A stretch of DNA of 35,199 bases from Smithella sp. UBA2180 (GTDB taxonomy: Bacteria > Desulfobacterota > Syntrophia > Syntrophales > Smithellaceae): positions 1 to 35,199 of the forward strand of contig DCVU01000114.1 in the NCBI GenBank assembly GCA_002327415.1, given 5' to 3'. Under the pieces are notes generated by a model, which was given only the letters and a program-made list of their open reading frames with translations, was not told the DNA's origin and made no database searches. Both the position numbers and the translations under genes were made by a program. Positions 17,757-24,490 of this stretch are shown in pieces. Each line of letters starts with the position of its first letter. The stretch's first letter is position 1.

Positions 17757-18272
17757 CTAGAATGATAATAATTTTAAAATTATAAAGGCAGTACTGATTA
17801 AAACACCGAACCAGCACATCACAATCAAAGAACGTTGTTCCACAGGATTTTCCAGATAATTCTTAACTTCTATTTCGACTTTCTCATTGTCTACCTTATC
17901 CACAAGAGAACGAATAAGTAAAGCATGGTTTTCTAATAAATTGGAAAAAAAATAAAATCCCTTAGTCGTTGTTAATATAAAATAAATTTTATTACGCAGG
18001 ATAACAACTCCTAATTGTGTAATCTCTGCCCAAGTAAATTCTTTTATACGAAAAAACTTCTCTATTTTTAAGCCTTCGTTAGTTACAATAATTTTTCTTT
18101 TTGTTGCTTCAACAGCAACAAATAAGGTAATGGCGAAAGAAACTGCTAGAATGATTTTCTCCAACATTTGACCTTTAAATAAACTGATTAGAAACAATAA
18201 GAAGAGAAGAACAACGACAGTGATAAAAGGTATGAGGAAAGTCCTTTTAATTTTAAAAATACTTTGTGTCAT
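17757..18272 (-). CDS. Hypothetical membrane protein: two N-terminal TM helices, a small soluble PH-like module and a C-terminal TM helix
   Basis: The 171 aa protein has hydrophobic stretches at residues 12-33, 38-56 and 148-168. The gene is strongly AT-rich. No family was recognised. Confidence 0.5.
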   Translation of the reverse strand: MTQSIFKIKRTFLIPFITVVVLLFLLFLISLFKGQMLEKIILAVSFAITLFVAVEATKRKIIVTNEGLKIEKFFRIKEFTWAEITQLGVVILRNKIYFILTTTKGFYFFSNLLENHALLIRSLVDKVDNEKVEIEVKNYLENPVEQRSLIVMCWFGVLISTAFIILKLLSF

Positions 18273-22731: not shown

Positions 22732-22735
22732 TTAT

Positions 22736-22901
22736 GGGGCTGTTGAAAAAAGTCCATACCCTAAAGGGCACCATGGTCTGCGGCGTTGCGCTGCAAACCG
22801 CACCGCTCAACGTATGTATAATACGCCTCGCGGTTCAGTTTTTGCCCGCCTTGCATCTGAACATCCCGTATCAAGTACGGGACAAGCTTTTGAACAGCCC
22901 C
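22736..22901. mobile_element. MITE-like, non-coding 166-bp element with imperfect terminal inverted repeats
   Basis: The left end is GGGGCTGTTGAAAAAAGTCC (22736-22755). The right end is GGACAAGCTTTTGAACAGCCCC (22880-22901), whose reverse complement is GGGGCTGTTCAAAAGCTTGTCC. The interior folds back on itself and includes the CCCGTA-N5-TACGGG hairpin at 22865-22881. It starts 4 nt after the lolA stop. Confidence 0.45.
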
Positions 22902-22908
22902 TAAGACT

Positions 22909-22983
22909 GTAGGGTGGATGAAGCGAAGCGCATCCACCGAACGTTCGAATAGGGTGGAACCGCTACACTTGTTCCACCCTACA
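22909..22983. repeat. Two adjacent perfect hairpins, the first with a GCGAAGCGC apex
   Basis: Hairpin 1 is GGTGGATG (22913-22920) / CATCCACC (22931-22938) around AAGCGAAGCG. Hairpin 2 is TAGGGTGGAAC (22950-22960) / GTTCCACCCTA (22971-22981), an 11-bp stem. Confidence 0.55.
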
Positions 22984-23017
22984 AATCTGGAAGAAGAATT
23001 AATTTTATATAGGTCGT

Positions 23018-23770
23018 ATGATGAAGAGATATTATGCCAATCGGAGGGGTCCGACATATTATAAAGAGAAGAGTATTATAGAAAATATTTCTGAAAAGAA
23101 GCTGCCAAATTACATTGAAGATTTAAAGAAAAAATTAAAGGAAGCTCCAGATTATGGAATGATCAAACATGCGCGAACGTTAAAAGCTTTCGATTTAATG
23201 AATATTAATACAAAGATAAAATCCATAACATCTGATCCCAATAATAGACAAATTTTCGGTTTGTTTGAGAAATCAACCCCTGAACTACAAGCCCTCTACC
23301 GAGAAAAATATAGAATAGAAGAAGAACTGAATAAACAGAAGAGTGACTTGGAAATGAACCAATACAGTGAACTGATGACAGGCGACTTGTGGGCTGCACT
23401 CCTAGTAGCAGAAAAAAGACTAGAACAAATTAACAGCAAAAGAAAGAAGGCAGAAGCCTTAAAGCAAAAAACATCTGTCATTGCGGAATATGAAGGAAAA
23501 TCTAGAAAAGTTGCCCGTTCAGTTAAGACTAAACTACCAATGAACCAAACCTGTCCATATTGCGGAAAAGAGATTGGCAAGATGGCACATGCTGATCATA
23601 TTTACCCAATCTCAAAAGGAGGTAGATCGACTATTTCCAATATGGTATACATATGCAACACCTGCAATATCAAAAAAAGTGACATGACGCTCAGAGAGTT
23701 TATATTAGAGTATAAGCTTAATCGAGACATGATCGAGCGAAATCTTGAATCACTGGGAAAAAGTTTTTAA
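23018..23770 (+). CDS. HNH endonuclease with a long uncharacterised coiled-coil N-terminal region
   Basis: The C-terminal sequence is CPYCGKEIGKMAHADHIYPISKGGRSTISNMVYICNTCNIKKSD (nt 23552-23683). It contains CxxC...H-x2-H...N...CxxC, the HNH beta-beta-alpha-metal/zinc module. Residues 1-175 are Lys/Glu-rich and helical, with no family recognised. Confidence 0.8.
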   Translation: MMKRYYANRRGPTYYKEKSIIENISEKKLPNYIEDLKKKLKEAPDYGMIKHARTLKAFDLMNINTKIKSITSDPNNRQIFGLFEKSTPELQALYREKYRIEEELNKQKSDLEMNQYSELMTGDLWAALLVAEKRLEQINSKRKKAEALKQKTSVIAEYEGKSRKVARSVKTKLPMNQTCPYCGKEIGKMAHADHIYPISKGGRSTISNMVYICNTCNIKKSDMTLREFILEYKLNRDMIERNLESLGKSF

Positions 23771-23865
23771 TCTTTCATATATAGATTGATGTCTGCGCTA
23801 AATGTAACATGTAGTGCATAATTTCTATTAATAATCTTCGATAGCAAAAGAAAATGTGACAATTG

Positions 23866-24441
23866 ATGAATGATGAGATTCAAAAAAATGTTAAAGAGTT
23901 GCAGCATGCCATTATTGTTGCAGGATTGAACTATGAAATTTGGTGGACTTATAAAGAAAAAGAAAGTCGTAAGCGTTATGTTGATATTCTAAACAAATAT
24001 CCGCTTTTTTTTCAGACCTCTCTTCATGCTCATTTCGTTGCGATGATAGTTTCACTCTATAGATTATATGAGACAAGAAAAGACACAGTAAACTTACCCC
24101 AGCTTTTGAAAATTCTTAAAAGTCAAGATTCTATTCCAAATCAAGAATTAAAGAAAATAGAATCAGAGATTAAAAAAATAAAACCTTTATGGGTCAAGGT
24201 CTCCGTTCTTAGGAATAAAATGTTTGGACACAGATCAAATGCTCTCAATGATGATGGGATTTGGAAAGAGGCAAAAGTAACACCAAATCAGTTCAAACAG
24301 CTTATTGACGAATCAAAAAGAATTTTGAACGAAATAACATCATTGTGGAATAGAAGTAGTCATGCTTTTAATTTATCATCAACAAAAGATACTGTAAATT
24401 TATTAGAAGATTTGAAACAATTGAATGAATCACAGATATAA
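23866..24441 (+). CDS. HEPN-domain protein, AbiU2-like (putative abortive-infection RNase)
   Basis: The protein is about 191 aa and all-helical. An Rx4-6H motif with a polar residue after the Arg (LRNKMFGHRS, nt 24211-24231) sits in the C-terminal third. It is preceded by the hydrophobic helix FVAMIVSLYRLYE, as I recall for the AbiU2 HEPN clade. The assignment is from memory, not from an HMM. Confidence 0.5.
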   Translation: MNDEIQKNVKELQHAIIVAGLNYEIWWTYKEKESRKRYVDILNKYPLFFQTSLHAHFVAMIVSLYRLYETRKDTVNLPQLLKILKSQDSIPNQELKKIESEIKKIKPLWVKVSVLRNKMFGHRSNALNDDGIWKEAKVTPNQFKQLIDESKRILNEITSLWNRSSHAFNLSSTKDTVNLLEDLKQLNESQI

Positions 24442-24490
24442 AAAGCGCATGACCTGCGCAAACATTGTCCATTCAAGCAGGCCATCTCTA

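Follow-up and report, generated by a model that had tools for sequence, protein, structure and literature searches.

Does a nuclease gene that directly precedes an abortive-infection gene form a two-part defence system with it, or have two independent genes settled side by side? The question is raised by a 35,199-nucleotide (nt) stretch of Smithella sp. UBA2180 (contig DCVU01000114.1, positions 1 to 35,199; hereafter the window), in which an AT-rich islet of two open reading frames (ORFs) lies between lolA and a convergent radical-SAM gene. ORF1 encodes an HNH nuclease with a coiled-coil region and ORF2 an AbiU2-family HEPN protein. An earlier reading of the DNA letters, made with no database search (the sequence-only reading), had proposed the two as a new defence pair. 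The answer favoured here, with guarded rather than firm confidence, is that each is an autonomous single-gene module acquired horizontally, the two being stacked in one variable spot and probably transcribed together. Elsewhere each gene usually occurs without the other, and the islet thus looks like two stacked modules and not like a new two-part system. Its features are as follows, with lengths in base pairs (bp) or amino acids (aa) and the structural model from AlphaFold2 (AF2).

22984..24444, + strand: AT-rich two-gene islet, 32.7% G+C
23018..23770, + strand: ORF1, HNH nuclease of 250 aa, helical/coiled-coil; the second ATG (23021) is the start of the database form (P0001)
23279..23533, + strand: single helix of 85 residues (87-171 of the 249-aa form), from the AF2 secondary structure
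23552..23683, + strand: HNH beta-beta-alpha-metal core with two CxxC pairs, from Pfam, invariant columns, and PDB profile and Foldseek matches
23771..23865, + strand: AT-rich spacer of 95 bp with no terminator-like structure
23841..24441, + strand: AbiU2 mini-cassette, from DNA alignment to the HNH-less loci L122 and L126
23866..24441, + strand: ORF2, AbiU2-family HEPN protein of 191 aa, from PF18734
24019..24036, + strand: second invariant motif of ORF2, S52-L-H54-A-H56-F57 (TSLHAHFVA), from an alignment of 20 homologues
24211..24231, + strand: HEPN Rx4-6H signature, R116-N-K-M-F-G-H122 (RNKMFGH), from invariant columns

The company kept by each gene carries the argument. Homologue searches returned 27 proteins for the HNH of ORF1 as against 312 close homologues for ORF2, and AbiU2 proteins are divided here into those of the ORF2 type (AbiU2A) and a divergent type only 20% identical to ORF2 (AbiU2B). 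This HNH was absent from all 27 genome loci of different species with AbiU2A (the SLHAHF-region motif also served as the search pattern for these loci) and from L122 and L126 too, giving none in 29 other AbiU2A loci. The neighbours at the 27 genome loci were mutually unrelated; those met at AbiU2A loci include a type I HsdR, a Druantia DruE helicase, AbiTii, a Lit-like Peptidase_U49, DUF2971, a transposase, and the housekeeping genes nadC and lepA. Two AbiU2A homologues, 87% and 78% identical to ORF2, both lack the HNH, the former standing behind a reverse transcriptase (RT) gene and a 159-aa gene and the latter behind a 194-aa gene and then a SIR2-like gene. AbiU2B homologues at 83% and 72% identity are also solo, with no HNH.

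The HNH side gives a similar picture. Across the wider HNH family, 80 metagenome loci yielded no AbiU2A with the ORF2-type profile, no AbiU2 stood among the most frequent Pfam families of the 131 immediate neighbours, and no partner gene recurred. An HNH 73% identical to ORF1 occupies the syntenic Aminotran_4-LolA locus of a related contig with no AbiU2, and the convergent gene 244 bp past it leaves no room for one. The order lolA-HNH-AbiU2-radical SAM is common to all contigs of the same species (L001-L006) and, being kept across one population, is uninformative on any linkage of the two genes.

The boundaries of the shared DNA likewise run between the two genes. Homology to L122 and L126 starts about 25 nt before the ORF2 ATG (at about 23841) and ends at the stop codon, and that of the HNH gene to locus L123 is confined to its ORF with short margins (about -12 and about +30). 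A same-strand gene ends at most 200 bp upstream of AbiU2 in 17 of 22 AbiU2A loci, and in 23 of 28 loci the AbiU2 gene has a lower G+C content than its flanks, the mean difference being 8 points. The profile search with ORF2 yielded 1136 representative clusters, of which the top 150 listed were nearly all single-domain proteins of about 190 aa. Homologues occur in bacteria and archaea alike, namely in Syntrophaceae, Nitrospirae, Planctomycetota, Synechococcus, Methanophagales, and Baldrarchaeota, and their presence in archaeal metagenome-assembled genomes indicates inter-domain transfer of this small gene. ORF2 would accordingly travel in a promoter-less cassette, about 600 bp in length, and land just 3' of any same-strand gene, often one of defence; AbiU2, in short, has the look of an add-on placed 3' of varied defence genes.

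Several individual loci may be recorded alongside. The archaeal homologues (P0053 and L025) are 71% and 51% identical to ORF2 and belong to Methanophagales and Baldrarchaeota, respectively. At L024 (1-6676), a Druantia DruE helicase (PADLOC, 1.5e-174) is immediately followed by an AbiU2 homologue and then by a Fic-domain gene; further homologues follow HsdR (L026), AbiTii (L035), and a Lit-like Peptidase_U49 (L041). The 87% identical relative, the closest AbiU2 outside the Smithella population, is found in L122 (450-4111) in the order RT (PADLOC, 9e-64), 159-aa gene, AbiU2, 305-aa gene; this array adjoins IS110 and IS3 transposases, and its RT-plus-HEPN layout recalls type IX retrons, which comprise an RT, a HEPN protein, and a protein of the winged helix-turn-helix type.

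Two published precedents are close to this behaviour. It was Anantharaman et al. (2013) who defined AbiU2 as a family of HEPN proteins and noted its links to Sel1-repeat genes and to restriction-modification (R-M) operons (PMC3710099). ORF2 homologues resemble the HEPN genes appended to R-M and other defence operons in that they follow HsdR, DruE, AbiTii, a Lit-like peptidase, and, in Smithella, this HNH; the contexts differ in that an HNH partner is not listed there and the Sel1-repeat partner is absent at the Smithella islet. More recently, a single integron cassette of Vibrio mimicus, HNPBCG_15845, with an AbiU2 HEPN domain was reported to protect against T4 and T7 (bioRxiv 10.64898/2026.03.17.712381). 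It too is a small, stand-alone, mobile, promoter-less AbiU2 HEPN cassette, a likeness of family and layout, but it is integron-borne, whereas neither an attC-like site nor an integron was seen at the Smithella locus.

As for the proteins themselves, both belong to known families, and the islet is a case of nuclease genes of known kinds standing side by side. In ORF1, residues 179-222 match PF01844 HNH (8.4e-13) and PF14279 HNH_5 (9.9e-13), in agreement with the sequence-only reading, and the Pfam scan returned no family beyond these two. The domain has the pattern CPYC..HADH..N..CNTCN, and C179, C182, D193, H194, N208, C213, C216, and N217 (250-aa numbering) are invariant across 16 homologues. 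A profile match, the catalytic D-H/N residues, and the zinc-binding CxxC pairs, which define an HNH endonuclease, are thus all present. Foldseek matches comprised McrA, the Cas9 HNH, and the Gme HNH, with EcoKMcrA (6ghc) at the top, and PDB profile matches comprised 4h9d, Cas9d, and the IscB-type HNH (down to 1e-9), which makes the Gme HNH nicking enzyme, the HNH domains of Cas9d/IscB type, and McrA the closest relatives of solved structure. All of these structural relatives align to the HNH core or to the helical stretch directly before it; the N-terminal half gave nothing significant in either the PDB sequence-profile or the Foldseek search.

That half had been taken for a coiled coil, with which the AF2 model (predicted local distance difference test, pLDDT, 81) is consistent. 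It predicts three short helices and a hairpin, then the 85-residue helix, and then the HNH core, and the long helix is presumed to be a dimerising coiled coil. The C-terminal end of the helix (AEYEGKSRKVARSVK) is conserved family-wide, with R162 and A165 invariant, and the motif EYEGKSRKVA directly before the HNH is invariant across the 16 homologues. The rest of the protein is less uniform. Compared with P0003, from a syntenic contig (JGI 3300075153), the successive thirds of ORF1 are 52%, 71%, and 97% identical, a mosaic that points to recombination and to a fast-evolving N-terminus; compared with P0002, the thirds are uniform at 78-84%.

ORF2 is, by its sequence, a clear member of HEPN_AbiU2, as had been proposed from the RNKMFGH motif. 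It matches PF18734 with an E-value of 5.5e-30 and 104.7 bits (cut-off 26.8), residues 4-174 aligning to profile positions 3-185 of 193. In the signature, the residues R116, N117, F120, and H122 do not vary among 20 homologues that are 51-87% identical, and the divergent type B protein has RDKTHFH as the equivalent motif. AF2 modelled ORF2 as an all-alpha bundle (pLDDT 78; predicted template modelling score, pTM, 0.72).

In the favoured reading of two stacked modules, ORF2 would dimerise to build a composite Rx4-6H RNase site and, upon phage infection, would cleave cellular or phage RNA, leading to abortive infection or growth arrest. ORF1 would be a catalytically intact HNH DNase of the Cas9/IscB/McrA type, carried on a long, fast-evolving, and probably dimerising N-terminus, and would act as a 'plug-in' nuclease, either alone or beside varied partners. 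Co-transcription in Smithella would then yield a DNA-targeting and an RNA-targeting layer of a putative anti-phage defence, neither gene requiring the other. Such adjacency as is seen within a narrow clade of the HNH family may reflect shared residence in defence islets or a loose synergy, as opposed to an obligate two-component machine.

This adjacency is nevertheless the chief difficulty for two independent modules, and the following observations weigh against them. An AbiU2-type neighbour is present in three of the seven contexts of HNH proteins at least 47% identical to ORF1 (P0001, the database form of ORF1 itself, being counted among the seven), with type A downstream of P0001 and type B upstream of P0002 and P0004, so that both gene orders occur. 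P0002 and P0004 are 80% and 58% identical to ORF1 and 60% identical to each other, and each is preceded by a 185-aa protein at an identical spacing of 120 bp; that of the P0002 contig matches PF18734 above threshold (4.3e-7, 30 bits) and is 20% identical to ORF2, and that of P0004 has a recorded PF18734 match. Given how rare the PF18734 family is, chance would hardly account for two separate adjacency events, and the recurrent adjacency argues for some functional tie between HNH and AbiU2. Moreover, the contexts of the closest HNH relatives are short metagenome contigs, and a 172-aa ORF lies downstream of the P0004 HNH. On the side of ORF2, Foldseek of its model against PDB and BFVD returned generic helical bundles only (E >= 0.09), with no HEPN entry, and the PDB sequence search gave no match; with structure searches yielding generic bundles, the HEPN assignment rests on the Pfam family and the motif.

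In the remaining four of the seven contexts, the HNH is accompanied by LolA only, by a P-loop nucleoside triphosphatase (NTPase)-like gene in a polB/integrase element, by a tetratricopeptide-repeat gene, or by DUF2806, and it is present in two of four distinct AbiU2B contexts. The link within the narrow HNH clade is therefore facultative. The proposal of a new defence pair is thus only partly supported: AbiU2 does accompany three of the seven closest HNH proteins, but the pair does not look like a conserved one, being met in none of the 29 AbiU2A loci and with close relatives of either gene occurring solo.

The strongest competitor, albeit a tentative one, builds on these observations and regards the islet as an AbiU-like two-component system in which the nuclease has been swapped. 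The HNH would take the effector role of AbiU1, with AbiU2 as modulator, sensor, or second effector, the two being made from one operon and interacting physically. The AbiU locus of Lactococcus lactis consists of abiU1 and abiU2 (Dai et al. 2001, as reviewed in PMC13064643). The nuclease-like AbiU1 (AbiUi) suffices for resistance, which the addition of AbiU2 (AbiUii) lowered (PMC13064643); AbiU1 was placed in the ParB-type nuclease family (PMC3632139). The founding AbiU therefore already has a nuclease-like gene followed by a HEPN gene that modulates the phenotype. It follows that the premise of the sequence-only reading, according to which AbiU2 is described as a lone gene, was wrong, AbiU2 being the second gene of a two-gene locus (PMC13064643; PMC3985639; PMC3632139), and that a nuclease plus AbiU2 has precedent.

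Further in favour of such a system are the two AbiU2 subfamilies and both gene orders met beside the narrow HNH clade, the AbiU2B-HNH spacing kept across 40% HNH divergence, the same-strand arrangement with 95 bp and no terminator between the genes, and the general placement of AbiU2A 3' of DNA-targeting defence genes. Against it, close homologues are solo in P0003, P0006, P0007, L122, L126, and L135-L141; the null co-occurrence in the AbiU2A loci and in the 80 HNH loci tells the same way; no AbiU2-HNH fusion was found in the seven longest proteins among the top 150 representative clusters listed; and two orders with two subfamilies fit island reshuffling equally well. Neither does ORF1 resemble AbiU1. 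The Smithella locus shares with AbiU the two-gene same-strand layout of a nuclease-like gene then an AbiU2 HEPN gene, and ORF2 falls in the same PF18734, but AbiU1 is ParB/AIPR/COG1479- or restriction endonuclease-like whereas ORF1, whose Pfam, NCBIfam, and PHROGs matches are all to HNH families, has no similarity to it, and no AbiU1-type protein lies upstream of ORF2. In AbiU, furthermore, AbiU1 alone protects and AbiU2 lowers the protection, whereas the Smithella pair is known from sequence alone. A broader form of the same idea, entertained with no greater conviction, is that the coiled-coil HNH clade and AbiU2 HEPN proteins constitute a facultative modular defence, in which the HEPN partner may be exchanged between subfamilies 20% identical and the proteins may interact, one gating or backing up the other.

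Comparison with the other named systems supports the earlier judgement that neither protein, nor the pair, is one of them. PADLOC gave no match for ORF2 or for the divergent AbiU2B, so no named or candidate system covers these, and for ORF1 it gave weak matches only, to Septu PtuB and PDC-M01B (1e-7 to 1e-3); the latter has been reported by PADLOC users as a Septu duplicate (PMC11811056). In size and architecture, a helical N-terminus plus HNH, ORF1 does resemble the HNH component of Septu (PtuA ATPase plus PtuB HNH) and PDC-M01, yet the matches are HNH-driven, those at 1e-7 to 1e-6 extending over the HNH plus some 70 residues ahead of it, and the islet and its surroundings hold no ATPase partner, the neighbours being LolA, AbiU2, and radical SAM. 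A 53% identical HNH relative in L007 does follow a P-loop NTPase-like gene, itself with no PADLOC match. With the type IV enzyme McrA, ORF1 shares the class of HNH core, and JGI pipelines name its homologues 'McrA', but the Foldseek alignment to 6ghc covers 82-93 columns, the HNH only, and the N-terminus is a predicted coiled coil and not the modified-DNA-reading domain of McrA/ScoMcrA; ORF1 is thus not placed among the McrA-type enzymes.

Less probable again, and on the whole unlikely, is that ORF1 is a selfish or mobile nuclease, either a homing-type HNH or one that serves the maintenance of a mobile element, sharing an insertion hot spot with an unrelated AbiU2 cassette. The gene-sized unit of homology to L123 and the mosaic thirds relative to P0003 would suit such a history, as would the best PHROG match, to the phage HNH endonuclease family phrog_2118 (4.9e-21, residues 118-239), and the integrases, T5orf172, and RT among the neighbours of the wider family. 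Mobile contexts are also on record. A plasmid tblastn search produced six HNH matches and one weak AbiU2 match, and the only full-length plasmid HNH, on Thauera pTha01, lies between an integrase and IS21 with no AbiU2 nearby; L007, with its polB-like gene and integrase, is a second such context. On the other hand, the gene is stably kept in all contigs of the Smithella population, many defence-type genes are among the neighbours, and both the architecture and the weak PADLOC matches resemble the Septu PtuB effector. The family is, in addition, essentially absent from viral contigs, the scans of which found neither AbiU2A nor AbiU2B and only six distant HNH-only matches. As the scanned viral contigs are nearly devoid of either family, an origin in phages was set aside, and with it the reading of ORF1 as a homing endonuclease of the classical phage kind. 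The element in L007 (276-8000) may be described in its own right: there the HNH, 53% identical to ORF1, follows a 468-aa P-loop/STAND-like NTPase (weak AAA_22 match) in a mobile element that also holds the polB-like gene and the integrase, in a Septu-like ATPase-plus-HNH layout.

A toxin-antitoxin module, with one protein serving to neutralise its partner, would fit a two-gene same-strand cassette of small proteins and the frequency of toxins among HEPN proteins (PMC3710099), but is very improbable, as each gene is solo in close relatives and the obligate co-occurrence of type II modules is thus lacking, the ORFs are neither overlapping nor tightly coupled, and lactococcal AbiU2 was not toxic in E. 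coli (PMC3985639).

What the locus signifies depends upon which explanation holds. If two modules are stacked here, this is an ordinary small defence islet of descriptive value, in which the AbiU2 HEPN gene is displayed as a roughly 600-bp cassette, passed widely between bacteria and archaea, that hitch-hikes behind other defence genes, the idea of AbiU2 as a lone gene only is corrected, and a fast-evolving coiled-coil HNH is flagged beside several different partners. If, instead, the two proteins form one system, the islet would explain the pairing of a nuclease with AbiU2 in the original AbiU locus and would offer, with only two genes, a tractable model of the coupling between HEPN modulators and DNA-cutting effectors.

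The setting of the islet remains to be described. Coordinates and flanking Pfam matches agree with the layout first read from the sequence, two same-strand ORFs between LolA (PF03548, 2.2e-24) upstream and a convergent Radical_SAM gene (2.5e-09) downstream, and the islet holds no third ORF. The gap of 95 bp is counted to the ATG at 23866; a TTG at 23863 would give ORF2 192 aa. No terminator was found on the + strand of the spacer (fold z 0.04), which makes co-transcription of the two genes plausible. The atypical composition, formerly estimated by eye, is borne out by calculation: the islet figure compares with 42.1% G+C for the whole window, 50% for leuS, and 46% for pyrG. ORF2 (30.6%, z -2.4; 26% G+C at third codon positions) is a stronger outlier than ORF1 (35.3%, z -1.3). 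Both genes do look horizontally acquired and of defence type, as had been supposed. The LeuS encoded in the window has Smithella sp. SCADC and D17 in its clusters at 90% identity or more, which marks the organism as a Smithella. Two structures bound the islet:

22732..22990, no strand assigned: GC-rich (53%) inverted-repeat segment from the lolA stop to ORF1, the left boundary, from repeats and folding
24445..24459, - strand: terminator hairpin of the convergent radical-SAM gene, the right edge, its T-tract abutting the ORF2 stop

The inverted repeats suggested for the left boundary (22736-22983) were recovered as two structures, I3 with 14-nt arms (22736-22749 and 22888-22901) and I1 with 31-nt arms (22908-22938 and 22953-22983). 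The segment folds with a minimum free energy of -106.7 kcal/mol (z -6.98 versus shuffles). No Rfam family matches it, and neither repeat was found a second time within the window, so that MITE is a candidate label only; the segment may be a REP- or MITE-like element or a recombination site. Scanning the islet and the whole window for Rfam families and tRNAs likewise gave no match. An attC/integron reading of the hairpin was dropped, there being by eye no core sites of the GTTRRRY type and no integrase nearby. At the right end, the sole terminator-like hairpin is that of the radical-SAM gene. Its T-tract overlaps the ORF2 stop codon (24439-24459), so that the AbiU2 cassette ends exactly at its neighbour's terminator.

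Elsewhere in the window, a second strongly AT-rich gene (17757-18272, - strand; 171 aa, 29.5% G+C, z -2.6) lies between moaC and a Fis-type helix-turn-helix gene, has a weak sub-threshold match to DUF6585, and may be another acquired gene.

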